Below, piece by piece: positions 1,913 through 29,609 of a DNA stretch of 29,609 nucleotides. The notes under the pieces are model-generated. The model was not told where the DNA came from and made no database searches. It saw only the letters and a program-made list of their open reading frames with translations. The stretch is from assembly GCF_035285525.1 (NCBI RefSeq), contig NZ_JAYKGW010000237.1, forward strand, positions 1-29,609, written 5' to 3'. This DNA comes from Okeania sp. GTDB lineage: Bacteria > Cyanobacteriota > Cyanobacteriia > Cyanobacteriales > Microcoleaceae. The position numbers were made by a program, and so were the translations under genes. How positions within the stretch are numbered: position 1 is the first letter of the stretch; every line of letters begins with the position of its first letter.

Positions 1913-4900
1913 ATGGGTATAGTAAGAGGTGGAGTTCCCACTGAACTAGCTATTCAACTAAGAAATAAATACAATTTGCAAGTATTTGTGGAAACAGGAA
2001 CTCACTATGGAGATACCGCTTTATGGGCAGCAAAACATTTTAACAAAGTAATAACTGTTGAATTTTCCCAGAAAATTTATGATGAAGTGCTGAAAAGGCA
2101 TAGTCAAGTAAAAAATATAGAATTTTTGTTTGGTCATTCAAAAGAACAAATTCAATCAATTGTACCTAAGCTGAAAGAACCAGCTCTATTTTGGTTAGAC
2201 GCTCATTGGTCAGGAAATGTTACTTATGGAAAGGGAGATGAGTGTCCTTTATTAGAAGAGTTAGAAATTATTAATAATTCAGAATTCGATCATTTTATTA
2301 TGATTGATGATGCACGACTTTTTACTTCACCACCACCACTCCCTCATCAAGTTGATGAATGGCCGAATATTAGTGAAGTTATCAAAAAATTAAACTTTTT
2401 GGGTGGAAAAAGTAGATACACAGTTATTGTAGAAGATGTGATAGTTTCTGTGCCCGAATATGCCAAATCTTTAATTGCTAAATATTCTCAAGATATTAAT
2501 ACTAAATTATCCCAAGAATACTCTAAAACTCGTCAGTCTCCAGGTATTATCCAATCATCTAATCCCCAAGAAAAAGATTTGATAGAAATTGTTAATGTGG
2601 TTAATTTTTTTGAAACTGCAACTCAATATTTAGTAGATTTTAGGCTAGAAAAACCAACAAAAAGAGCAACTGATACTATTGTGCGTGTAAGAGGTTGGGT
2701 AGTAGGAAAAAAATCTCCAGTAAAAGCAATAGAATTAGTTAATGGAGGACAAGTATTAGATACTATTCCGGTTGATTGGGAAAGACATGATGTGGCTCAA
2801 GCTTTCCCAAACTATTTAAAAACTGGAGAAAATTCTGGATTTAGAAAATCCATTAATTCCCATCAACTTTCTAACAATAATCAATTCACTTTACAAGCAG
2901 TATTGAAAGATGAAACTCGCGTTCCCATAGCAGAAGTAACATTCAGAAAAAGACCCAACAAACAAAATGCTAAACAAAACATTGCTTTATTTAGAAATAG
3001 TGGAGAAAGTCACGTTATTTCCAGATTTATTAAATCTGACGATATAGTTTTTGATGTGGGAGCTTCGGTGGGAAATTGGACTCAAGAAGTTTTAGCTCAT
3101 CATCCCAATGCTGAAATACATATATTTGAACCCAGAATTAAAGCATACAGAAATCTCGTTAAAAATCTATCTGCACAAATACCGTCAGGAAAAATTATTG
3201 CCAATAATTTTGCTGTCGCCAAAACTGAAGAAATTAAGAGATTTTATGATTATGAAAGTGCCCCTGAATTAAGTACATTTTATAGAAGGGTTGATGTAGA
3301 AAAGCGACCTAAATTTAAGCCTCCAATAGAATTACCAATCTTGACAACTACTATAGATAATTATTGTCATAGTTTAGGAATTAAAAGAATTAATTTTCTC
3401 AAAATAGATGTAGAGGGTAGTGAATTAGATGTGCTTCATGGCTGCGATAAATTATTGAAACAAGGAAAAATAGATTATATTCAATTTGAGTATGGTGGAA
3501 CTTATATTGACTCGAAAACAACCTTAAAACAAGTTTTTAATTATTTGCAAAGTTGCCGATATTTAATTTTTAAGATGCTGCCAGATAGGGTAGATTATTT
3601 ACCTCAATTTTTACCAGAATATGAAAATTATGGCTATGCCAATTTCTTAGCAGTTAATGAACGTTTCAATGTCAATATTTTAGGTGGTAAAAAAGATCAA
3701 ATGCTTGACATTGCTGCTCTATGTCAAGAACATTCTATTAATATCAGTGGTGTAGTACATATTGGAGCGCACATGGGACAGGAACTTGGAGAATATCAAC
3801 GAATGAATGTCAAAAAAGTTTTGTTCATTGAAGCTAATCCAGTTGTGTCTGAACGGCTCCAAAAACAAGTAGCCAATTTACATAATGTACAAGTAGTTAA
3901 TTGTGCAATTACTAATCGTAACGGCATCGTTAACTTACACGTCACTTCTAACGAACAAAGTAGTTCCATCTTACCTCTAAAAGGTCATAGTAATATTTAT
4001 CCAAATATTAAAGAAACTCATCAAGTTAATGTACCTGGAAAGACATTGGATACCTTGTTACAAGAACTAGGAAATCAACCAGAAGAATTCAATTTTTTGA
4101 ATATAGATATTCAGGGTGCAGAATTATTAGCTTTGCAAGGAGCTACGAATCTACTAAAATATGTTGATGCTATTAATACAGAAATTAATTATGAAGAACT
4201 GTATGAAGGATGTGCATTAATTGATGAGATTGATGAATTTTTAGAACAACATGGGTTTGAGCGGGTGGCAACTACAACACCAAATCCTACTTGGGGAGAT
4301 GCTTTTTATATCAGAAAGCCAGTTGTTACTGTCTCTGAACTAGGTTTTAATGGTCGTTTTGGTAACCAGATATTTCAGTATGGTTTCTTGAAAACTTATG
4401 CCCTCAAACATAATCTCCGAGCTGAAACTCCTAATTGGATAGGCCAGTATCTTTTTGGTCACAAAGATCCGCCAATTTCTCGATTGGAAAATTTGCAAAA
4501 AGTTAAGGAAATAATAGATGGAAAAACTGGTTCCCGATCGATACCTGATTCAGAACAACCCTTTAAAGACGTTGACTTCTTTGGTTATTTTCAGCTTCAT
4601 TTTAGCTATTACGCGCCCTACAAAGAGTATTTCAAATCATTGTTTCAACCTATTGGAGAGGTAAAATCAACAGTGGCAGTAGCGATGAAGAAACTCCAGG
4701 AACGGGGAAAAACAATAGTTGGTTTGCATTTACGCCAAGGGGACTATAAACACCTAATGAGGGAAAAACGTTCTGGCATTACTTGTGCTTATGTAGCTCC
4801 TAACGAATGGTATAAAGATTGGTTGGCTGGTTTGTGGGAAACCTTAGAGGAACCAGTTTTATTTATTGCTAGCGATGAAGTTGAAGAAGTTGTCAGTGAT

Positions 4901-5721: not shown

Positions 5722-5814
5722 TAGGGAGTAGGGAGTAGGGAGTAGGGAGTAGGGAGTAGGGAGTAGGGAGTAGGGAGTAGGGAGTAGGGAGTAGGGAGTA
5801 GAGAGTAGGGAGTA
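5722..5814. repeat. Heptamer tandem array (TAGGGAG/GGGAGTA), about 13 copies, STRR-like
   Basis: Direct reading: tagggag repeated head-to-tail from 5722 to 5814, with one variant unit (gagagta) near 5800. Intergenic, downstream of the CDS ending at 5662. Confidence 0.95.
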
Positions 5815-5984: not shown

Positions 5985-6055
5985 CCTTCTTCACATCGAT
6001 CTTCTTCCTTCTTCACATCGATCTTCTTCCTTCTTCCTTCTTCCTTACCTTCTTT
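5985..6055. repeat. Simple repeat: 22-bp unit x2 (ccttcttcacatcgatcttctt) followed by (CCTTCTT)n
   Basis: Direct reading of 5985-6055. The same CCTTCTT-type run occurs inside the giant CDS at 14521-14555. Confidence 0.9.
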
Positions 6056-9883: not shown

Positions 9884-10558
9884 TTAATGACCAGAATTAA
9901 CATGACTTATATAAGATTTATTGAGTAAATTTTTGTAAGATGAAAAACTAGATTCTGAACGACCTTCGCCTTTTGTACCTTCAACAATCCAAACATTAGG
10001 ATATCCGTTATCTACTCGATAATTTCCATGACGTTCAATATCTATTAGGCTTGAATGTTGGCTTTTTCCATACTCACAAAATACTATATTTTGCCATCCT
10101 AAATGACTCAGTAAAGATTGCAAAAAATCTTGGGAATAAAGAAATTGATGACCCCATCCATGAAAAGCCCGATTGATAGATAATGTAGAATCAATTCGTC
10201 TCTGGGGATTCTTTTCTGATAAATTAAAATGAGTGGAAAGTACCCACTCAACAGCAGGAGTAGAAAGTCTAATTACTCCACCAGGTTTGAGACTTTTCCA
10301 ACCATGATTTAAGAAAGCGATCGCTCCTTCTAGACTTAGATGTTCGAGAAAATGTTCCCCATAAATATATTCCAAACCATTAAAAGGCCAAGGTTTAGTT
10401 ACGTCCATTGTTTGGTCAATCCCATTAAAAGGACGAATATCTACATTCCACCAATCAGGCAAAATATTTTGGGGTCCACAACCCACTTGGACTTTTTTAA
10501 TGCCATTGGGATGGTTTGGGTTCTTACGAGAGGTATTATTTTGGGTTGATAGATTCAT
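9884..10558 (-). CDS. Class I SAM-dependent methyltransferase (Methyltransf_11-like), 224 aa
   Basis: Motif I VQVGCGPQNILPDWWNVDI; EHFLEHL; post-II LKPGGVIRLSTP. Single-domain protein, 40 nt downstream of the preceding minus-strand gene. Confidence 0.75.
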   Translation of the reverse strand: MNLSTQNNTSRKNPNHPNGIKKVQVGCGPQNILPDWWNVDIRPFNGIDQTMDVTKPWPFNGLEYIYGEHFLEHLSLEGAIAFLNHGWKSLKPGGVIRLSTPAVEWVLSTHFNLSEKNPQRRIDSTLSINRAFHGWGHQFLYSQDFLQSLLSHLGWQNIVFCEYGKSQHSSLIDIERHGNYRVDNGYPNVWIVEGTKGEGRSESSFSSYKNLLNKSYISHVNSGH

Positions 10559-10595: not shown

Positions 10596-10772
10596 TTAAT
10601 GACTATTTTTTAAAGGTGGAATTTGATCGGCAGTTAATGTCACAATTTTACCATCTTTGAGAATACTAATTGATTCTCCTAATCTTCGATGTCTTTCTAT
10701 TGCAGAAGCGATCGCTGCTTTTACACCAGAATCAATTTGTTCTGATAATTTACCGGAATTTTTTTTATTCAT
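10596..10772 (-). CDS. Small hypothetical protein (58 aa), candidate partner of the zeta-toxin-like ATPase; not in the supplied ORF track because it is under 60 aa
   Basis: My translation is MNKKNSGKLSEQIDSGVKAAIASAIERHRRLGESISILKDGKIVTLTADQIPPLKNSH*. The ATG (10772-10770) overlaps the upstream gene's stop in ATGAATAA, an 8-nt overlap that suggests translational coupling. It contains a HIP1 site (10708-10715). Confidence 0.5.
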   Translation of the reverse strand: MNKKNSGKLSEQIDSGVKAAIASAIERHRRLGESISILKDGKIVTLTADQIPPLKNSH

Positions 10773-11340
10773 TGTTTTTTTCTGTTATTTGTTGCCAGAT
10801 AGAGGGTTGATAAATAATAACTGAAAGGTTGTGTGAGTATTCAGCTACTAATTGGGGATTATCCTCAGAATTATTATAGACAATCCAACTATCACATAAG
10901 GGTAAATATAGCTGAATTAAGTTTTTCTTTCCTCTTTCATAGCGACGGCGAATAACTTCAATAGGAATATTATGTCCTCCACTGTCTACTCGTCTTTGAA
11001 CTCTTTCTATTGCTAATTCAGGAGTTTGTAACCAGAAATAAATTAAATTAATTGTATAGCCATCAGCTTTACAGTTTCTCAAAAAATGAGCGAAGTTTCG
11101 GGCAGCTAGAGTAGTTTCAAAAGCAAAATCAAGTTTTTCTTTAACTAAAGTTTTCAGACGTTCTAACATTAACCTTCCAGCTTGGATAGCAACTGATTCA
11201 GCGTTAAAAGGAGATAGTCCAGTAGCAATTTCATCTGCGTTAACATATTCAAAAATATCAAGAACATTTGGTAATAGTTTCTTAGCAACAGTAGTTTTTC
11301 CTGAGCCATTAGCTCCACCAATTACATATATTTCAGGCAT
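10765..11340 (-). CDS. Zeta-toxin-family / COG4185-like P-loop ATPase (191 aa)
   Basis: Walker A IGGANGSGKTTVAKK at the N-terminus, then DEIA...FAFETTLA...GGHNIPIEVIRRRYERG. This is the typical layout of zeta-toxin-domain predicted ATPases. Confidence 0.7.
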   Translation of the reverse strand: MPEIYVIGGANGSGKTTVAKKLLPNVLDIFEYVNADEIATGLSPFNAESVAIQAGRLMLERLKTLVKEKLDFAFETTLAARNFAHFLRNCKADGYTINLIYFWLQTPELAIERVQRRVDSGGHNIPIEVIRRRYERGKKNLIQLYLPLCDSWIVYNNSEDNPQLVAEYSHNLSVIIYQPSIWQQITEKNNE

Positions 11341-12337: not shown

Positions 12338-12368
12338 TAAGTCATATCAAATTTATTCAGTAAACCCT

Positions 12369-12417
12369 AATTATCAATTATTAATTATTAATTGTTAATT
12401 ATTAATTATCAATTATT
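12369..12417. repeat. Heptamer tandem array AATTATY x7
   Basis: aattatc aattatt aattatt aattgtt aattatt aattatc aattatt. The last unit contains the TAA stop (12413-12415, minus strand) of the giant CDS. Confidence 0.9.
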
Positions 12418-15400
12418 TAGGACTTTGCATTTTTTTCTGATTTAGCTCCTTGATCGCTTCCAACATTTTCTCTACTCTTTTCTGAAAACTATGATGCTCC
12501 CGAACATATTTTGCCAACTCTAATTTTACTCCTTTATTCTGACTTTTTTGCTGCAAACTATTTGCTACTACTTTTGGCAAATCTGCCTGAGAATTATAAG
12601 TAGAAATTTTATTTCCAAAGACTTTTTCTAAACCTGAAATTTTATCAGATACTATTGTTGCTCCACAAGCAGCAGCATCAAATAAACGATTAGAAATAAA
12701 TCCTTTTTCTCGCATAGTATCCCAATGGTCATTTAATAATACACCACATTTACTGTAATAACGTCGTAAAATTTCATTAGGAATATATTCTCCTTTCAAA
12801 TAACCATCGGGCAATAAATTTCCCCAGTTTGTACCATAAACATCTACCTTTAAATTACTCTCCACTGCATCTTTTACTATCTGGCGATAAACCTTTCGAG
12901 AATTTCCCACAAACAAAATTTCTCCTACTTCTTCAAAACCTTCCTCATCAGGATAAAACAAATTTGGGTCAGTACATTGAAGCAAAGTGTTGACTGGAAC
13001 TTTTACTTGTTTTTGTAACTCCTCAGCATAAGAATGAGATGCCACAAATACTTGGTCATATTCTTCATATTCTTCTAGAGAAACTTTATCTGGATGACTA
13101 ATATTCCACATCAAATTAATATGATAAGACTTAGGTTGATAACGACTCAAACCTCGAATCGTAATTGCCACATCATCTCCAAATATTTGGGGATTTTCCC
13201 ACTCTGGCAAAATATCAATTCTGACAGAATGACCTAATATTTCAAATTGCCGTTTCATGGCTAAGGCAAAATGATAATCTCCCCATTCTTGAGCTTGGTT
13301 CCAGTCAGGAACTCCAATTTTTATAGCGATGCGGAAACTATTACTCATTTTTTCGCGTAAGGCAGAAAATATTGTATAAGCACGATGTTTATAAGTATGT
13401 TTTTCTTTAACTATTTTCTGTAACTCTGCCACTTTTGCTAATCTTAATTCCTCATTTGTGAGATATTCTCGTAATAAATTTTCTAGAGATTCACGAGAAT
13501 GATAAGTAGGCAAAATTCCATCGAAAGACTCTTGATTTCCTAATTCTCCATTGCTAATAACTAAAGCACCAGACATAATTGCATCAAAGACTCTAGAATT
13601 TGTGGAACCCCATTGTTTTGTAACTGAGTTGGCATCATCAATTACTACTTTTGTAGAAGCATAAACTTTTGGCATATCAGTATAAGGAAGAGGTCCGCGA
13701 TTATACTTTTTAAACTTCTCAAATTTTTCCCAGTTATAACCATACAAAGCAAATTCAAAAGGTAAATTATCTGGTTCCAATACGCTCATAATATCTCGTG
13801 GATATTTCCAGAAACTTCCTGTGAAACAGTAGTCAGATTTATATTTATTCTCTAGTTCAGAATTGATATTTTCCTGTTGCTCTAAAACTGCTACTTCCGA
13901 ACTACTTTCTACTTTACTTTTGTCTGCTTCGGGAATTTTATTACCTAGTTCAGAAGAAGACTTTTCTGATTCTTCTAAAATTGCTACTTCTGAATTTTTC
14001 TTTGATTCCGAATCTGATTTGTGTGACTCTTTTGAAATTCCTAATTCCGAATTTTTCCCTACTGCACTTTTCCCTACTTCGGGAATTTTATCACCTAGTT
14101 TAGAAGAGGATTTGCCTGACATTTCTGAAATTCCTATTTCGCAATTTTTCCCTACTTCGGAATTTTTCTCTAATTCAGAATCTAATTTTTCTGACTCTTT
14201 TGAAATTCCTATTTCAGAATTTTTCCCTACTGCACTTTTCCCGGCTTCGGAAATTTTATTACCTAGTTTAGAAGAGGATTTTTCTGACATTTCTGAAATT
14301 CCTATTTCGGAATTTTTCCCTACTTCGGAATTTTTCTCTAATTCAGAATCTAATTTTTCTGACTCTTTTGAAATTCCTATTTCGGAATTTTTCCCTACTT
14401 CGGGAATTTTATTACCTAGTTCAGAAGAAGTTTTTTCTGACTCTTCTGAAATTGAAAATCCCAATTTTTTCTCTAGTTCAGAATCAATTTTTCCTGACTG
14501 ATTTAAAATTCCTACTTTATCACTTCTTCCTTCTTCCTTCTTCCTTCTTCCTTCCTCAAATCTTTCCTCATTAGTTGCTATTCTAATTACCGTTGCAGGT
14601 TTAAATAATTTCTGCTGAATATAATCAGCAGATTTTTGAGAAGAACACCAAAAACAATCATAATCTACCTTTGATTTTTGAGACCCCCAAACCTCAAACC
14701 AATTTCTTGCCCAAGCAACTTTTACTAAACTTGGTTTAGCATTTTCTATTCTTTCTAAATCATAATCATGGCGCATAATCACAATTACATCTAACCTTGT
14801 CATATCATACCAATCATCTCCTTCCGAAATATAATAAACATCCCATCCAAATTCTTTAACTAATTGTTCTCCTAACTCCACCGCTGTAAAATAATCTCCT
14901 GCGGAAGCTGCCATATCTGCTTCAGTTACAGCAAACCCAATAGTTAAAGGATGACCAGTCCAATACATTCCTTTTTCAAAGAAATCTTGTAAATGTTGAC
15001 GACGCAAATAATAAGCATATCTTTGTTCAATTATCGGGCGATTTTTCAAGATTTTCTCGATAAATTCTTTCCCTTTATTAAACCGAGAAAAACCGCGATT
15101 ATGAAAAGCAGTTAAATTATTAGCACTGATAATTTCTTTGCCTAATTTTTGTCGAATAGTCAAACATAAATCTACATCCTCATAACCATAAAAATAGTCT
15201 TCATTAAAACCTCCCACTGCCAGAAAATCTTCTCGCCGACACATCATTAAAGCTCCAGTAACAACAGGTACTTTCCAAGGAGCAGATTGTACCTTTAATA
15301 ATTGGGGAGCATATCTAACTTCATAAGGATAAAAAGGTTCATTTTGACTGTGGAAATATAACTGAACTCCTAAATGTTGAGTAGGAGGAAAAGCCAAAGA

Positions 15401-18382
15401 GCGATCGCTTACTATGTCTAATAATTTTACTCCTACCATTCCGAGATTTTCATCTTTTTGAATTAATTCAACCATCTGCGGAATAATATCTTGGCAGAGG
15501 GTAATATCATTATTCATAAATAGTAGTAAAGGTGCTTTTGTTTCCTCTACTCCCACATTATTTGAATTGGAAAAAGAATAATTATCTCCCCTAGCAATAA
15601 TTGTAATTGGTAATTTTTCTGACCATTGGATACAGACATCTATACTATTATCTGTGGAACCGTGGTCAACTATTATTAATTGATAATTTTCATAGGTATT
15701 ATAAATTTCAAAAGAAGCAAATAATTCACTTAAGAGTTTGGCTCCATTCAAACTCAAAATAATTACTGCTACTTCTGGTTTTTCTATCTTAACTTTTGCC
15801 AGAGGTATTTGATTTATAACTTCCTCTCCACTTCTGACTTCTTCTAATTCTTCACTTTTGATTCCTTCTTCACTTTTAACTTTTGAATCTTCATTTCTTA
15901 CTTTGGAATTTTGATTCTTGACTTCTTCTAATTCTTCACTTTTTACTTTGGAATTTTTACTTTGGAATTTAAAATTTACTTCTTCACTTTTTACTTTGGA
16001 ATTTTTACTTTTGAGTTCCAAAACTCGATAGATAAGTTTATTAATTTCTCCCTGATTATAACTAAGTTTAATTTCATGTTTTACCCCTTTCGGTCCGACT
16101 ACTAAAAGTTTAGGAGAATTTTTTAATTGCTGACCTGTTTCTGTTATTTTCACACTAACTTCAACTAACCCATTGCTATGTAAAGAAGGCGGAATCTTAT
16201 GAGCAAAAGCATGATATCCATGAGTATCAAAAGCCTCAGCTAAATCTTTTCTATATTTATTCGCGACTAAAGTTCCGATTAAATTATTACCAACAAAAAT
16301 ATCAAGAAATACAACCTTATTAGCATCTTTTTTATGTCTCGCCCAACCAGAAACATAGTCAATAGTTGCATAATCCAAACAACCTTCAAACTCCGTTTCT
16401 CCTAATACACTTAAATTACTAATTTCCCCAGTTTCCAGAACCCTTTGAAAAGATAAAACTTCCTCTAATTTTTTCTTAGCTTTAGAAAAATAAGGGTCTA
16501 TTTCCAAAGCACGACGATAAAAACTTATAGCATCAGTTAATGGATTTTTTTTAGCCTTAACTTCCCCTAACTGAAACAGAAACTTTGCCGAATTAGGTCT
16601 TAACTCCACAGCCTTAGTATAAGCAGCGATCGCCTCATCCCATCTACCTAATCTTGACATAACGTTCCCAATATGGTATCTTACGTCAGCAGATTTAGGA
16701 TTAAGTTGACTAGCTTTCGTATAAGCAGCCACCGCTTCATCCAACTTTTGCAGTTCAGCCAAACTTTCTCCCAACATATGGTATAATGCCGCCGAATTAG
16801 GATTAATTTCTGCTGCCCGACGATAACTCGTAACTGCTTCATCCCACCGTTTCAACTTACTCAAAGTATGACCCAACTGATGGTGAATTTCTGCCGTATT
16901 AATACCCAACTCAATAGCTTGCCGATAATTTACAATAGCATCATCAAAATTTTGTTGCTGTACTAAAGCAAAAGCCAAATTATGGTATACTGCTGCTAAC
17001 TTGGGATTAAGTTCTAAAGCGTAGCGATAATTAACAATAGCCGCATCCCACTTTTGTTGTGAGGCATAACTTTCCCCTAAATAACCATATACCTCAGCTA
17101 AATTGGGGTTAAGCTTTAGGGCACGTTCAAAAGAAGCGATCGCCTCATCCCACTGTTTAATATTACCCAAAGCCTTACCCAAATCTCCATAAGCTTCAGC
17201 CATATTAGGATTAAGTTTAACAGACTTACGCAGAACAGCTACTGCCCAATCATTCTGTTTTAATTGAATCAAAACATGGCCGAACTGATGAAACACATCT
17301 GGAGAATTAGGTTGAAGTTCAGAAGCTTTCCGGTAAGCTACAACTGCTTCCTCCCATTTTTCTTGTTGAGACAGAGCATATCCTAAATAATGATAAACCT
17401 CTGGGGACTTTGGTTGAAGTTCCGTAACTTTCCGGTAAGCTACTACTGCCTCTTCCCATTTTTCCTGTTGAGCCAGAGCATATCCTAAATGGCGATAAAT
17501 ATCTGGGGACTTTGGTTGAAGTTTCTGTGCTTGTCCATAAGCTGAAATAGCTTCTTCCCATCTTTTTTCTTGAGTCAGAGCATATCCCAATTGATGATAG
17601 AGTCCTGCTGTAGGGGTAGTATTTTGCTCCCTCAATAAATCAATTGTTTTTTGATAAGCAACAATAGCCTCATCCCACCGATGTAATTTTGCCAAGACTT
17701 CCCCATAATGATGAAAAACTGTAGCAGAGTTCGTAATTATTTGGCAAGCCTTTAAATAAATTTCCGCAGCTTGATGTAAATCTCCCAATTTTGTGAAAGC
17801 CATTCCTAACTTTTGGTATCCTGCCCAAAAACCAGGATCAATGTCAATCGCTTTTCGATAACAAATTATCCCTTCCTCAATCTGACCTTGTTTTTCTAAA
17901 GCTACTCCTAAACTTTGATGAGCAATACTAGAGTCAGGGTCCATAGATATAGCCTTTTGGAAATTAGCGATCGCTTCATAAAATAATCCTTTTTGGATTA
18001 AAACTTTTCCTAAACTAATGTAAAATTCAGAGAAATTAGGATTAATCTTAATAGCTTGGGAAAAAGAAGCGATCGCTTGACCTAACTTACCTTGTTTTTC
18101 TTGCATATTTCCCAAATTGTAATGAGATAATGCAGAAGTAGGTTGAAGTTCTATTGCTTTGTGGTAAACTTTAGCAGCTTCTTCCCATTTACCTATTTGA
18201 GTAAGAACATATCCTAAATGTTCGTGAAACATGGCCAAATTAGGGTTAAATTCAATAGCTTTTCTGTAGAGAGTAACTGCTTCTTTTAATTGGCCTGCTG
18301 CTACAGCTTGTTGGCCTTGTTGGAAATATTTGTTTGGAGTTTCTGGATTTAGTGGGAACAGGGTACTCATATTTGTCTTCAT
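12413..18382 (-). CDS. Giant multidomain protein (1989 aa): ~17 TPR repeats, GW-like module, K/S/E repeat linker, GT2 glycosyltransferase, and 2 CgeB-like (DUF3880/Glyco_trans_1_2-type) GT-B modules, the first split by a long S/E/K repeat insert
   Basis: - TPR array aa ~15-640 (nt ~18340-16460), many units of the form W.EA...Y.KA.EL.P.
- GW-like module: YVSGWARHKKDANKVVFLDIFVGNNLIGT...KDLAEAF...GYHAF (nt ~16100-16440).
- GT2: VAVIILSLNG...LIIVDHGSTDNS...FMNNDI...GALMMCRREDF..GGFNEDYFYGYEDVDLCL (nt ~15790-14950).
- CgeB-like C-terminal halves: FALYGYNWEKF...STNSRVFDAIMSGALVISN and ILFVGNSRKVYR...VDVYGTNWG...ISNRLFDAAACGATIVSD.
A methionine at codon 5 (nt 18370) is an alternative start. Confidence 0.8.
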   Translation of the reverse strand: MKTNMSTLFPLNPETPNKYFQQGQQAVAAGQLKEAVTLYRKAIEFNPNLAMFHEHLGYVLTQIGKWEEAAKVYHKAIELQPTSALSHYNLGNMQEKQGKLGQAIASFSQAIKINPNFSEFYISLGKVLIQKGLFYEAIANFQKAISMDPDSSIAHQSLGVALEKQGQIEEGIICYRKAIDIDPGFWAGYQKLGMAFTKLGDLHQAAEIYLKACQIITNSATVFHHYGEVLAKLHRWDEAIVAYQKTIDLLREQNTTPTAGLYHQLGYALTQEKRWEEAISAYGQAQKLQPKSPDIYRHLGYALAQQEKWEEAVVAYRKVTELQPKSPEVYHYLGYALSQQEKWEEAVVAYRKASELQPNSPDVFHQFGHVLIQLKQNDWAVAVLRKSVKLNPNMAEAYGDLGKALGNIKQWDEAIASFERALKLNPNLAEVYGYLGESYASQQKWDAAIVNYRYALELNPKLAAVYHNLAFALVQQQNFDDAIVNYRQAIELGINTAEIHHQLGHTLSKLKRWDEAVTSYRRAAEINPNSAALYHMLGESLAELQKLDEAVAAYTKASQLNPKSADVRYHIGNVMSRLGRWDEAIAAYTKAVELRPNSAKFLFQLGEVKAKKNPLTDAISFYRRALEIDPYFSKAKKKLEEVLSFQRVLETGEISNLSVLGETEFEGCLDYATIDYVSGWARHKKDANKVVFLDIFVGNNLIGTLVANKYRKDLAEAFDTHGYHAFAHKIPPSLHSNGLVEVSVKITETGQQLKNSPKLLVVGPKGVKHEIKLSYNQGEINKLIYRVLELKSKNSKVKSEEVNFKFQSKNSKVKSEELEEVKNQNSKVRNEDSKVKSEEGIKSEELEEVRSGEEVINQIPLAKVKIEKPEVAVIILSLNGAKLLSELFASFEIYNTYENYQLIIVDHGSTDNSIDVCIQWSEKLPITIIARGDNYSFSNSNNVGVEETKAPLLLFMNNDITLCQDIIPQMVELIQKDENLGMVGVKLLDIVSDRSLAFPPTQHLGVQLYFHSQNEPFYPYEVRYAPQLLKVQSAPWKVPVVTGALMMCRREDFLAVGGFNEDYFYGYEDVDLCLTIRQKLGKEIISANNLTAFHNRGFSRFNKGKEFIEKILKNRPIIEQRYAYYLRRQHLQDFFEKGMYWTGHPLTIGFAVTEADMAASAGDYFTAVELGEQLVKEFGWDVYYISEGDDWYDMTRLDVIVIMRHDYDLERIENAKPSLVKVAWARNWFEVWGSQKSKVDYDCFWCSSQKSADYIQQKLFKPATVIRIATNEERFEEGRRKKEEGRSDKVGILNQSGKIDSELEKKLGFSISEESEKTSSELGNKIPEVGKNSEIGISKESEKLDSELEKNSEVGKNSEIGISEMSEKSSSKLGNKISEAGKSAVGKNSEIGISKESEKLDSELEKNSEVGKNCEIGISEMSGKSSSKLGDKIPEVGKSAVGKNSELGISKESHKSDSESKKNSEVAILEESEKSSSELGNKIPEADKSKVESSSEVAVLEQQENINSELENKYKSDYCFTGSFWKYPRDIMSVLEPDNLPFEFALYGYNWEKFEKFKKYNRGPLPYTDMPKVYASTKVVIDDANSVTKQWGSTNSRVFDAIMSGALVISNGELGNQESFDGILPTYHSRESLENLLREYLTNEELRLAKVAELQKIVKEKHTYKHRAYTIFSALREKMSNSFRIAIKIGVPDWNQAQEWGDYHFALAMKRQFEILGHSVRIDILPEWENPQIFGDDVAITIRGLSRYQPKSYHINLMWNISHPDKVSLEEYEEYDQVFVASHSYAEELQKQVKVPVNTLLQCTDPNLFYPDEEGFEEVGEILFVGNSRKVYRQIVKDAVESNLKVDVYGTNWGNLLPDGYLKGEYIPNEILRRYYSKCGVLLNDHWDTMREKGFISNRLFDAAACGATIVSDKISGLEKVFGNKISTYNSQADLPKVVANSLQQKSQNKGVKLELAKYVREHHSFQKRVEKMLEAIKELNQKKMQSPK
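13863..14500. repeat. 171-nt (57 aa) in-frame tandem repeat, ~3.5-4 copies, inside the giant CDS
   Basis: The unit encodes GKNSEIGISKESEKLDSELEKNSEVGKNSEIGISEMSEKSSSKLGNKISEAGKSAV. Near-identical DNA blocks begin at about 14109 and 14279 (tttctgacatttctgaaattcctatttcg...), with degenerate flanking copies. The repeat also produces a spurious 212-aa antisense ORF. Confidence 0.9.
15835..16015. repeat. Short in-frame repeat encoding SKNSKVKSEE(L/V) units in the giant CDS
   Basis: The protein reads LKSKNSKVKSEEVNFKFQSKNSKVKSEELEEVKNQNSKVRNEDSKVKSEEGIKSEELEEV. On the plus strand, cttcactttttactttggaatttttac recurs. Confidence 0.8.
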
Positions 18383-27326: not shown

Positions 27327-29174
27327 ATGAAATCAACCAACCTAACGAATTACAATTTAGAAGAAGTAAAAGTAGAAGTAATTTCGATTCATGTACCAAG
27401 AACTGGTGGTACTGCATTTAAGAATGTTATTAGGCAGGTATATAGTTCAGAGGAAATTTTTTTTGACTATCCTCACAAAGGTCCGATTCGGAATCGGATG
27501 TTAAGTAAACCAAAACCGGAAGTCAAAATAATTCATGGTCATTTTCCGGCTCCAAAATATAATCAAAAATTTCCGGGTTCTAAAAAAATTATTTGGCTGA
27601 GAGACCCGATTAAACGGTTGATTTCTCTTTACTTTTTTTGGAAAAGTTGGCAAATATTAATAGCAAATGATGAGCAAAGTTTAAAAAATAATCAAGAAGC
27701 TAGTTTGAGTTTTATCGAATTTGTTGAACAACCGGAAATGCAGAATCTAATTAAGTTAAATTTTCTGCAAAATGAGCGGCTAAAAGATTTTTATTGGGTG
27801 GGTATTCAGGATTTTTTTGCTGAGGATTTACATCAATTATCTGTAATGTTAAATTGGGCAGATTATGAGTTAGAAACTCAAAAAAGTAATCCATACCCAG
27901 AATATAAGTTGTTAACAAAAGAAGTATTATCGAATCAAGAAATAGTTGATAAAATATCTGCTATGAATCAGGAGGATATAGAAATTTATCGAGAAGCATT
28001 AAGTTTGCGGGTGCGGCGTCAAAAAACTTCAGAGATAAAATACTATATTCAAAATAACTCTGGAAAAAAAAATATTATCCAGAAAAAAGGGAGAATTAAT
28101 TGTTTACTTACTTGGGGTTCTATTGATCGGGTAATTGTTAAAAATCAAGTTTTACGTTTATCTGGTTGGGTTGCTTCTCTGGATGCTGGTATGGTGCAAG
28201 GTTTTAAAGTTTCTGTTGGGAATCAGGAGTTTAGTTTCTTTGAACAAACTTTGAATATACCTAGTCCAGATATTGAGAAGGTTCACTCTAGTTTATTTGG
28301 TGCAGGTAATGCTAGATTCCGTCTAAAAATACTTTTAAATAAACAAAAAATTAATCAAATAAAACATTCATTAATTTCTGTAATTCCTCTGTTTGAAAAA
28401 GGTGAGGGTATAGTTATATTGACTGCATTGACGCCTATTTTACCACTGCCAGATCGGAAATATCTAAAAATGATTGGAGAAGATAGTGCTCATCAGTTTA
28501 TTTATCATTCTTTCAAGTTATTAGGAAGTTTAATTCAGAGATTAGGTTTACAACCAACAGACCATATTCTTGATGTTGGTTGTAATGTTGGTAAAGTTGC
28601 TTATTGCTTAGTTCATTATTTAGAACCTTCTGGTCGTTATGAGGGTTTTGATATGGTAGAAAATTTTATTTCTTGGACTCAAAGGGAAGTTACTACTCGT
28701 AAACCTAATTTTAATTTTAATTGGCATAATATTCATCATCGTCTCTACAATTATACAGGCAAAATATCTGCTAATAATTTTATTTTTCCTTATCCTGATG
28801 TTAGTTTTAATTGTGTTTGTGTTTCTCGTTTATTTACTCATTTACAAGGTTCAGGAGTTGGTCATTTTCTTGATGAAATATATAGAGTTTTACAACCAGG
28901 GGGTAGATGTTTATTAATCTGCTTTTTAGTTAATTTGGAAGCTGCAGAGTTGATTAGTAAGGGGAAGAGTTCTCAACAGTTTATTTATGAAATAGAGGAT
29001 GGTTTGACTATAGATATTAATTTGCCGGAGAAGGGAATTGGGTTTAGGGAGAATATACTATTAGAATGGGTGGAGGAACGAGGATTTAGTGTTTTAGAAA
29101 GAGCTTATGGTTCTTGGTGTGGTCGGACTTCATCTATTAAGGAAGATTTGTTGGTTTTGGAAAAAAGTTTTTAA
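27327..29174 (+). CDS. Sulfotransferase, GWV variant-B module and class I SAM methyltransferase (615 aa)
   Basis: Starts 38 nt after the previous stop, so co-transcription is likely.
- Sulfotransferase: ISIHVPRTGGTAFKN...IHGHF...IIWLRDPIKRLIS (~27370-28010).
- Variant-B module: LRLSGWVASLDAGMVQGFKVSVGNQEFSFF...NARFRLKILL (~28100-28400).
- MTase: ILDVGCNVGKVAYCL...LQPGGRCL (~28450-29174). Confidence 0.8.
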   Translation: MKSTNLTNYNLEEVKVEVISIHVPRTGGTAFKNVIRQVYSSEEIFFDYPHKGPIRNRMLSKPKPEVKIIHGHFPAPKYNQKFPGSKKIIWLRDPIKRLISLYFFWKSWQILIANDEQSLKNNQEASLSFIEFVEQPEMQNLIKLNFLQNERLKDFYWVGIQDFFAEDLHQLSVMLNWADYELETQKSNPYPEYKLLTKEVLSNQEIVDKISAMNQEDIEIYREALSLRVRRQKTSEIKYYIQNNSGKKNIIQKKGRINCLLTWGSIDRVIVKNQVLRLSGWVASLDAGMVQGFKVSVGNQEFSFFEQTLNIPSPDIEKVHSSLFGAGNARFRLKILLNKQKINQIKHSLISVIPLFEKGEGIVILTALTPILPLPDRKYLKMIGEDSAHQFIYHSFKLLGSLIQRLGLQPTDHILDVGCNVGKVAYCLVHYLEPSGRYEGFDMVENFISWTQREVTTRKPNFNFNWHNIHHRLYNYTGKISANNFIFPYPDVSFNCVCVSRLFTHLQGSGVGHFLDEIYRVLQPGGRCLLICFLVNLEAAELISKGKSSQQFIYEIEDGLTIDINLPEKGIGFRENILLEWVEERGFSVLERAYGSWCGRTSSIKEDLLVLEKSF

Positions 29175-29214
29175 GAGGGAAAGGAATAAAGTGCATTTTA
29201 AAGGTCAAGAGTTA

Positions 29215-29609
29215 GTGGTGAATTTTTCTAACTATTGCGCAAATGAGAAGTTTCATTTTGTGAAGCACCCCAGTAGAGGTGATGAGTGATGAAATTTTCC
29301 CACTATTGTTCTATACGCAATAGTTAGTGCATTTTGTGAAGCACCCCAGTAGAGGTGATGAGTGATGAATTTTTCCCACTATTGCGTATAGAGCAATAGT
29401 TAGTGCATTTTCTTAAGCACCCCAGCAGAGGTGATGAGTGATGAATTTTTCTAACTGTTGCGCAAATGAGAAGTTTCATTTTGTGAAGCACCCCAACAGA
29501 GGTGATGAGTGATGAATTTTTCCACTATTGTTCTATACGCAATAGTTAATGCATTTTCTTAAGCACCCCAACAGAGGTGATGAGTGATGAATTTTTCCAC
29601 TATTGTTCT
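29215..29609. repeat. Composite tandem array, 71-76 bp period, at least 5 units, running off the window end
   Basis: A conserved ~40-bp core ([gtg/ctt]aagcacccca[gt/gc/ac]agaggtgatgagtgatgaatttttc) starts at 29260, 29336, 29412, 29483 and 29558, with a degenerate partial copy at ~29215. The cores alternate with two recurring hairpin-plus-T-run inserts: type A cactattgttctatacgcaatagttagtgcatttt and type B taactattgcgcaaatgagaagtttcatttt. Confidence 0.9.

Follow-up and report, generated by a model that had tools for sequence, protein, structure and literature searches.

Two groups of bacterial extragenic repeats are the closest described relatives, in behaviour, of the element reported here. 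The REP and BIME sequences of enterobacteria and pseudomonads are extragenic, occupy many loci and combine an imperfect palindrome of 20-40 nt with short conserved linkers, in tandem, at a composite period of ~80 bp; they are enriched beside the 3' ends of genes and have been proposed to act as barriers or attenuators at transcript 3' ends and to bind proteins. The MIRU/VNTR loci of mycobacteria are dispersed, intergenic tandem units of 40-100 bp, often situated between co-directional genes and variable in copy number; MIRUs contain small open reading frames (ORFs) which overlap the flanking stop and start codons and provide translational coupling. Here we describe a tandem array of ~76-bp units at the end of a 29,609-bp contig of Okeania sp. 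(NZ_JAYKGW010000237.1; Microcoleaceae, Oscillatoriales), the whole of which was analysed and is referred to as the window. The array is very probably the truncated start of one member of a clade-specific, non-coding, extragenic tandem-repeat family of Okeania, Dapis and Trichodesmium (Microcoleaceae). In behaviour this family most resembles REP/BIME elements and MIRU-type minisatellites; from each it departs in one defining feature, lacking the alternating orientation of the former and the coupling ORFs of the latter.

The array spans positions 29194-29609 and comprises one degenerate unit followed by five units of 71-76 bp, running off the contig end; since the window is the entire contig, the assembly broke inside the repeat, and a preliminary description of this DNA had been right to state that the array extends further. 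Its estimate of at least five units with a 71-76-bp period was also borne out: Tandem Repeats Finder reported 4.8 copies of period 76 over 29254-29609 (83% matches, score 472), together with a higher-order period of 146 bp, and a repeat search of the window returned five copies at spacings of 76, 76, 71 and 75 bp. A 31-nt core, AAGCACCCCARYAGAGGTGATGAGTGATGAA, occurs five times and only within the array, where none was expected from 100 shuffles. Type A inserts (ACTATTG-N9-CAATAGT) were located at 29302, 29378 and 29524, and type B inserts (ACT[AG]TTGCGCAAATGAGAAGTTT) at 29231-29253 and 29454-29476; both types, and their order of B, A, A-flipped, B, A, A, had been read correctly. The units are listed below, with matches to the unit profile, a profile hidden Markov model built from 53 diverse units of the family, where these are informative.

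29194..29253, plus strand: unit 0, degenerate, CATTTTAAAGG...GTGGTGAATTTTTCT, with a type-B insert (29231-29253); matched by the unit profile over 29214-29242 (E = 2e-5).
29254..29329, plus strand: unit 1, 76 bp, with junction CATTTTGTGAAGCAC at 29254-29268 and the palindromic module at 29302-29324 in the minority loop orientation (TTCTATACG); nhmmer match with E = 5e-14.
29330..29405, plus strand: unit 2, 76 bp, with the palindromic module at 29378-29400 in the family-majority loop orientation (CGTATAGAG), the reverse complement of its neighbours.
29406..29476, plus strand: unit 3, 71 bp; its insert, at 29454-29476, is of type B (ACTGTTGCGCAAATGAGAAGTTT).
29477..29551, plus strand: unit 4, 75 bp, with the palindromic module at 29524-29546 in the minority loop orientation.
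29552..29609, plus strand: unit 5, incomplete, its palindromic module (29599-29609) being cut by the contig end.

The type-B insert of unit 3 derives from the palindrome but is without the loop (TTGCGCAA), and can be compared with T. erythraeum units (ACTATTGCGCAATAGT). In the middle type A copy (29378) the loop is the reverse complement of that in the other copies, and the 23-nt arms are 96% complementary to those of its neighbours. A B-A-A' block of ~223 bp is duplicated in the window at 94% identity, and its third unit is flipped in one copy only; the flip is thus younger than the duplication. Owing to the flipped module, the adjoining units contain 23-nt inverted repeats, 96% complementary (29302-29324, 29378-29400 and 29524-29546), which enclose a stretch of 53 nt or 123 nt and would pair mutually in a long transcript or in single-stranded DNA, not as local hairpins. 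Multi-unit stretches of the window gave minimum-free-energy z-scores of -4.3 and -6.6, values which are strong because flipped and unflipped palindromes pair with each other.

The extent of the family was estimated by a first scan of one genome per GTDB species, in which two junction motifs 55-75 bp apart were sought; at least 115 stretches were returned, and on these loci the unit profile matched at least 803 units, almost all of them in arrays, with six solo units among ~100 match clusters. With a second, independent ascertainment through palindrome pairs in metagenomes, the family rose to at least 1,039 units in at least 149 arrays (2-29 units each) at a minimum of 147 loci; these totals are lower bounds, the true number being larger. 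The hosts among the matches listed were 17 assemblies (8 Okeania, 3 Dapis, 2 Trichodesmium including IMS101, 2 Microcoleaceae metagenome-assembled genomes and 2 unplaced cyanobacterial ones), and family units were present in metagenomes too. Within the same matches, 0 of 149 arrays lay inside an ORF of at least 150 aa, making the family strictly intergenic. All 20 non-cyanobacterial matches to the junction pattern failed the unit profile and are therefore attributed to chance; nine of nine pattern matches on viral contigs failed it as well, and no family match was obtained in plasmids or phages. Exact scans of genome and metagenome collections for the window core found no match, which indicates that the core is strain-specific and that the shared parts are the junction and the palindrome; relatives were recovered by the junction motif instead. 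In the finished genome of T. erythraeum IMS101 the family is represented at the following loci.

NC_008312.1 4,217,373-4,218,694, plus strand: array of 18 units.
NC_008312.1 5,774,654-5,775,240, minus strand: array of ~8 units.

No description of the family was found in the searchable literature or in Rfam, and it is provisionally regarded as undescribed, several relevant papers lying outside that search; the repeats treated in the T. erythraeum transcriptome paper are different ones of 736-973 bp (PMC4143802). Membership of an Rfam family was rejected, there being no match at gathering thresholds and only chance-level miRNA and snoRNA models (E >=1.5) at relaxed ones. A C/D-box or K-turn RNA was likewise discarded: the match to sR11 had E = 3, a perfect GUGAUGA occurs in this strain alone, and its junction lacks CUGA.

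Unit anatomy was computed over 564 distinct units. The unit measures ~76 bp (range 68-88; commonest lengths 76, 77 and 86 bp) and begins with a near-invariant, non-palindromic junction, CATTTTnTGAAGCnC, at positions 1-15. Positions 16-24 hold ~0 bits, being alike within an array and saturated between arrays; positions 25-31 form a purine box, GGnG-(A)TG, which reads GGAGGTGAT in many arrays and in that form is complementary to the 3' end of 16S rRNA; positions 40-44 lie in an A/T tract, AAATTT(T); and positions 50-71 are occupied by a palindrome of 21-23 bp, T.TTGC-N7-G.AA.A.T. The first scan had selected for the junction, and units were for this reason re-ascertained via palindrome pairs. In that set the junction was present, with no more than one mismatch, in 104 of 189 linkers, unrelated GC-rich repeats making up much of the remainder, and among its 194 distinct profile-confirmed metagenome units the junction was again the most conserved block. 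Differences per site between arrays were 0.12 for the junction, 0.27 for the palindrome, 0.42 for the box and 0.71, i.e. saturation, for the variable stretch; within arrays the junction gave 0.06 and the variable stretch 0.22.

The junction also heads units that are otherwise unrelated, which begin with CATTTTnTGAAGC, stand in tandem or in alternation, and are not matched by the unit profile. Such units were seen at loci L016, L077, L082, L098, L109 and L113 (82-88 and ~195 nt), L100/L028 (76/119/220 nt) and L036/L039 (alternating 61/77 and 69/75 nt); some carry, on the opposite strand, a Shine-Dalgarno box with ATG and a small ORF, e.g. AGGAGGGAGAG-ATG MEKFDEGKTSIYGSFRK, and those of 195 nt contain a GC-rich hairpin with a T-run. 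They may be relevant to how the junction motif arose.

Set against REP/BIME, the family agrees in the size of its palindrome (21-23 bp), its extragenic location (0 of 149 arrays in ORFs), its abundance (at least 1,039 units), its tandem clusters near gene 3' ends and its unit of ~76 bp beside a composite period of ~80 bp. It differs in that its units are arranged head-to-tail, whereas BIME palindromic units alternate, only the module being flipped here (24 of 277 oriented units); its arrays are much longer, up to ~30 units; its most conserved part is the non-palindromic 15-mer; no RAYT-type gene was found in a crude motif screen confined to the fetched flanks; and there is no sequence similarity. 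The likeness to MIRU/VNTR loci was also tested and holds for unit length (68-88 bp), for the many intergenic loci and for variable copy number (20 vs 11, and ~4 vs 15 vs 20 units), but the family shows no conservation of start codons, its arrays lie in all orientations (one third antisense to the upstream gene), and lineage and sequence are unrelated.

Units were 0.90 identical within arrays and 0.66 identical between them. At sites with both flanks in common in different Okeania species, copy number was 20 against 11 units in one case and ~4, 15 and 20 in another. Among 277 oriented units the palindromic module lay in the majority orientation in 253 and in the minority orientation in 24, and both orientations occurred together in 6 of 61 arrays, the window array included. 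At locus L086 (array loci are designated by L numbers) the inversion carries mismatched arms, CCCCATGC...GCAATAG against CTATTGC...GCATGGGG, from which it follows that in some flips the whole module, and not the loop alone, can invert. It is established or strongly implied that each array is homogenised internally, by concerted evolution through unequal recombination, slippage or gene conversion; that arrays are gained or lost and differ in copy number between orthologous sites; and that the palindromic module occasionally inverts in place. Chloroplast non-coding DNA contains hairpin-associated minute inversions in which loops flip in place recurrently. The flips between the near-identical window units 1, 2 and 4 resemble these, whereas that at L086 takes the mismatched arms as well. 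Filamentous cyanobacteria harbour SDRs, heptamer STRRs and Nezha MITEs, of which the SDRs are dispersed single insertions. This group shares with the family hairpin modules of ~21-27 nt which occur in either orientation, nest in other repeats and are specific to filamentous cyanobacteria; compared by description only, the SDRs differ in that the palindrome of the family is a fixed slot of a tandem unit, solo copies of which are rare.

A selfish or neutral minisatellite without host function could evolve in a similar manner: an enzyme acting in trans, such as an HUH/Y1 transposase on the REP and RAYT precedent, would recognise or cleave junction and palindrome together and seed units at new sites, and slippage with unequal crossing-over would expand the seeded units. 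HUH substrates consist of a hairpin and then a single-strand-type motif, and the hairpin of the family with the invariant motif 7-8 nt beyond it resembles them. The ends of many arrays coincide exactly with the end of the junction or with the 5' edge of the palindrome, presence at orthologous sites is patchy, the palindrome helix is without covariation, a 115-nt element bounded by terminal inverted repeats occupies the slot of the palindrome at 13 loci, and genes for IS605-type TnpB are common in array loci. However, sequence signatures particular to each array, and orthologous arrays kept across species, make the family look old rather than the product of a recent burst; solo units are rare (6 single matches among ~100 clusters); the screen of the fetched flanks for HUH/Y motifs, a crude one, gave 0 candidates for an IS200/RAYT-like Y1 gene; the spacing of TnpB to arrays is not fixed; and an orientation bias relative to the upstream gene is not predicted. 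On this balance we consider a purely selfish or neutral origin unlikely, though far from negligible.

The element of ~115 nt, bounded by ACTAGACYGACACA...TGTGTCAGTCTA, directly abuts arrays, in the palindrome slot of the terminal unit, at L020 (6507-6622), L011, L024 (two copies flanking arrays), L044, L054, L060, L070, L072, L078, L079, L089, L094 and L095; in 12 of the 13 loci it has the same orientation as the array, it contains an extended -10-like box, TGCTATAAG/C, and it is absent from the window. The TnpB genes (OrfB_IS605 with a Cas12f1-like TNB domain) were seen in 8 array loci, including L071 at 2890-4125; a specific association with arrays was rejected, the genes being 0.1-5 kb away in no fixed arrangement.

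Strand-specific signals were evaluated with array sense defined as the CATTTT strand. Relative to the upstream gene, 58 arrays were on the same strand and 30 on the opposite one (binomial p = 0.004), and in gaps between co-directional genes 22 were sense and 10 antisense; the bias relative to the downstream gene (51 same, 65 opposite) was not significant. Gene 3' ends (123) adjoined arrays more often than 5' ends (81), and arrays were found in every intergenic context, divergent gaps included. Under a terminator-scanner rule applied to 456 distinct units, a hairpin followed by a T-run was present in 21.5% of units on the CATTTT strand and in 1.1% on the other. The sense lean to the upstream gene and the one-strand hairpin/T-run sites support a strand-specific role. 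In the window the gene concerned is the following.

27327..29174, plus strand: upstream gene, encoding a 615-aa sulfotransferase/S-adenosylmethionine methyltransferase (Pfam Sulfotransfer_2 and Methyltransf_25/11/23).

Its stop codon lies 20 bp ahead of unit 0, and a site scan found no promoter-like or terminator-like site between the two. We envisage an array without a promoter of its own, into which the transcript of the upstream gene, here the methyltransferase gene, would read; the weak hairpin and U-tract, iterated on the strand of that gene, would then stop transcription between neighbouring genes in a leaky, cumulative way, or serve there as a 3'-end barrier, and the invariant junction would be read strand-specifically by a putative factor. 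Taken as a whole, mechanism included, a REP/BIME- or MIRU-like extragenic repeat under concerted evolution is the best explanation available, and we regard it as about an even call. The leaky 3'-end element fed by read-through, judged on its own and by analogy, is tentative, and we would lean somewhat against it.

Several results weigh against this proposal. Above all, a terminator model leaves the near-invariance of the non-palindromic junction unexplained, which is its chief weakness. The palindrome is ~78-80% paired, yet its covariation does not exceed that of shuffles (164 of 500 reach the observed score); its mismatches are divided equally between G·U (233) and A·C (235); RNAalifold returned no consensus structure and predicted no pairs; and per-unit folding z-scores are weak (-0.9 forward, -0.6 reverse). 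The T-run usually begins 7-8 nt after the stem, unlike that of a canonical intrinsic terminator, the window palindromes have only two G-C pairs and fail the terminator rule, and a third of all arrays run antisense to the gene upstream. With no covariation and with G·U equal to A·C, selection on an RNA helix is not supported. Another candidate helix, CACC/GGTG or 'hairpin 1', was rejected: it exhibits no covariation, its central pair is most often A-A, and mutual information tracks subfamilies, not pairs.

An array bound by protein at the DNA level was also considered, each unit offering the two-fold symmetric T.TTGC-N7-G.AA.A and the asymmetric 15-mer to a nucleoid-associated, insulator or iteron/sopC-like protein. 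A site recognised as duplex DNA predicts just such a palindrome, whose half-sites are symmetrically conserved with no compensatory change and no excess of G·U. Inversion of the loop is tolerated, as such a site would allow. The sopC locus of the F plasmid consists of tandem units, each with a short inverted repeat, and serves as a precedent. A purely duplex site does not, however, predict an orientation bias relative to transcription, loop orientation is strongly biased (253 vs 24 units), no candidate binding protein was identified, and no plasmid matched the family. We consider this explanation quite unlikely.

The preliminary description had suggested, with the NsiR1 repeats as a model, that each unit is a small RNA (sRNA) gene. 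Each copy of NsiR1 has a 70-nt promoter with a -10 hexamer and the DIF motif TCCGGA at -35, followed by a 60-nt RNA, and the copies form a single locus near hetF in heterocystous cyanobacteria (PMC4030482, PMC6596454). The present family is similar in being cyanobacterial and non-coding, with short head-to-tail units that contain a hairpin and T-run, but it occupies more than 100 loci, its units are of 76 bp, and a conserved -10 hexamer is lacking, TAnnnT being present in at most 22% of 456 distinct units at any fixed offset, on either strand. No hetF-type domain was present among the window ORFs scanned, the neighbours there being glycan-modifying enzymes. The hosts of the family are not known to form heterocysts.

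Tandem sRNA genes with their own promoter and terminator, or alternatively a long transcript cut at the junction into ~76-nt RNAs, would agree with the terminator-like hairpin and T-run on one strand only and with the occurrence of arrays in every intergenic context, divergent gaps included; the invariant junction and the array-specific 9 nt after it would be in keeping with a processing site that precedes a specificity segment, and Trichodesmium is known for abundant repeat-derived non-coding RNAs (PMC4143802). Against this, no periodic sigma-70-type promoter or terminator matches were found in the window, the flanks of 50 arrays share no common upstream leader, no conserved secondary structure and no Rfam family was recovered, and a 76-bp unit is shorter than the NsiR1 promoter and RNA combined (PMC4030482). 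One sRNA gene per unit was not supported, and sRNA production in either form appears improbable.

A version of it that would be of particular consequence, and that we judge distinctly improbable, is that the arrays are precursors of clade-specific ~76-nt RNAs, transcribed from outside or by read-through, which a dedicated protein would cleave at the invariant CAUUUUnUGAAGC junction. Many copies of one RNA would then come from each array, and in them the array-specific segment of ~9 nt after the junction would be an address. It could serve as a seed or guide, or it could sponge up an RNA-binding protein or the anti-Shine-Dalgarno end of 16S rRNA, the GGAGGTGAT box being complementary to the latter. 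Such an arrangement would follow a CRISPR-like logic of repeat plus short specificity segment without spacer acquisition, and would explain some of the unusually large and strongly transcribed non-coding portion of genomes of the Trichodesmium type. The published T. erythraeum transcriptome libraries excluded RNAs of <300 nt (PMC4143802).

Tiny peptide genes had been offered as another possibility; each would be translated from the GAGG box (MNFS.../MSDE...). Every window unit does contain GAGG and then two ATGs, opening short ORFs of 6-23 codons, and the four MNFS/MKFS peptides quoted in the preliminary description are exact translations. The start codons are not conserved, however: among 564 distinct units the codon at the MNFS start position is ATG 30 times and GTG 165 times, and the first, upstream ATG is present in 259. 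The first ATG usually follows directly on the GGAG box, without a spacer, peptide length (6-23 aa in the window) and sequence shift with insert type and flip, conservation has no third-position or other 3-nt periodicity, and the prevalent unit lengths (76, 77, 86 bp) are mostly not multiples of 3. Peptide genes are very improbable on these grounds. Among the three options that had been put forward (sRNA genes, peptide genes, or a structured repeat with no product), the last fits best.

Regular spacing of a ~40-bp core with ~35-bp inserts gives the array the appearance of a degenerate or orphan CRISPR array, a class called LTRR in the early cyanobacterial literature, and the two have in common a constant segment which alternates with inserts of similar length and arrays which break assemblies. 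The inserts of the family, in contrast, are recurrent and conserved, with two types in the window that are conserved across genomes where a CRISPR array would have unique spacers, and the palindrome is in the 'insert', not in the 'repeat'. A search for nearby cas genes, as had been recommended, detected no Cas domain among the 12 window ORFs of at least 120 aa; there are many arrays per genome, a complete Dapis array has no unique spacers, and the upstream flanks of 50 arrays share no leader. Practically no credence can be given to a CRISPR origin, and the preliminary description was right in seeing a non-CRISPR composite array with recurring palindromic inserts, one of them flipped.

Sites orthologous to that of the window were compared between relatives. 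In two of them (L001, L002) the orthologous methyltransferase gene is followed by a homologous array, and in five others the array is absent. One of the two is a metagenome scaffold, in which the array follows an ortholog with 83% protein identity and likewise runs off the contig end; the other is Dapis sp. BLCC M172 (L002; ortholog 79% identical), where ~17 units of 76 bp extend over 1.3 kb and the next gene on the same strand begins 105 bp later. The five array-less sites (proteins 72-80% identical) have an unrelated spacer of 118-270 bp. Against its two syntenic counterparts the window array has identities of 0.68 and 0.67, the three arrays being mutually 67-68% identical, and CATTTTnTnAAGC, GAGGTG, GAATTT and the palindrome are common to all three. 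Comparison of L002 with L004 indicated that ~190 bp had been replaced, not a clean insertion with target duplication. A 'scar' or proto-unit at array-less sites, plausible by eye, was rejected, as the unit profile finds none there.

The array had been placed immediately downstream of a glycan island; its position after the methyltransferase gene stands, but it is no local curiosity, being one of more than 100 arrays across the clade. Informative Pfam matches among the window ORFs of at least 120 aa were to multidomain glycan-modifying enzymes (sulfo-, methyl- and glycosyltransferases, TPR) and to one zeta-toxin-domain protein. A specific link of arrays to genes of the glycan island was considered and dropped, only one further locus (L086) having a homologue of a neighbouring gene. 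Downstream of the methyltransferase ortholog (window 27327-29174 compared with L002, L004, L006, L252 and L253) the genes differ, encoding proteins of 1160, 2004 and 1597 aa, which points to a mosaic glycan island with the array at one of its junctions.

The hosts add context to these results. Trichodesmium and its relatives have ~40% non-coding DNA and very abundant repeat-derived non-coding RNAs, for reasons that are unclear (PMC4143802). The family provides more than 1,000 units in the sampled sequences and defined loci in the finished T. erythraeum IMS101 genome, and among bacterial extragenic repeat families it is, provisionally, one for which no prior description was found. A 15-nt motif that stays near invariant amid saturated bases implies that something must read it. 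In practical terms the arrays break short-read assemblies, this contig and many others ending inside them, and can pass for CRISPR arrays; their variable copy number could provide strain markers for bloom- and mat-forming marine cyanobacteria. Where the period of the arrays is 87 bp, long spurious ORFs arise on both strands: at L093 (2094-3021) such arrays are open in one frame per strand, giving ORFs of 276 and 241 aa with 29-aa repeats, which look like spurious proteins that gene callers could report.

Elsewhere in the window, the zeta-toxin/AAA_33-domain ORF lies inside the glycan-modification island (10765-11340, minus strand) and is followed by a 224-aa ORF on the same strand (9884-10558) with only a weak methyltransferase match. 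Heptamer tandem repeats at 5722-5814, 12368-12417, 6001-6046 and 14523-14554 (TAGGGAG x13, TAATTAT x7, CTTCTTC runs) are of the STRR type typical of filamentous cyanobacteria. Long tandem repeats within genes, none related to the 76-bp family, occupy 1-511, 13984-14453 and 17286-17599; the first window ORF opens with a 282-bp repeat (1.8 copies, 90% matches), and repeats of 168 bp, 75 bp and a TPR-sized 102 bp lie inside a 1989-aa TPR/glycosyltransferase ORF on the minus strand.

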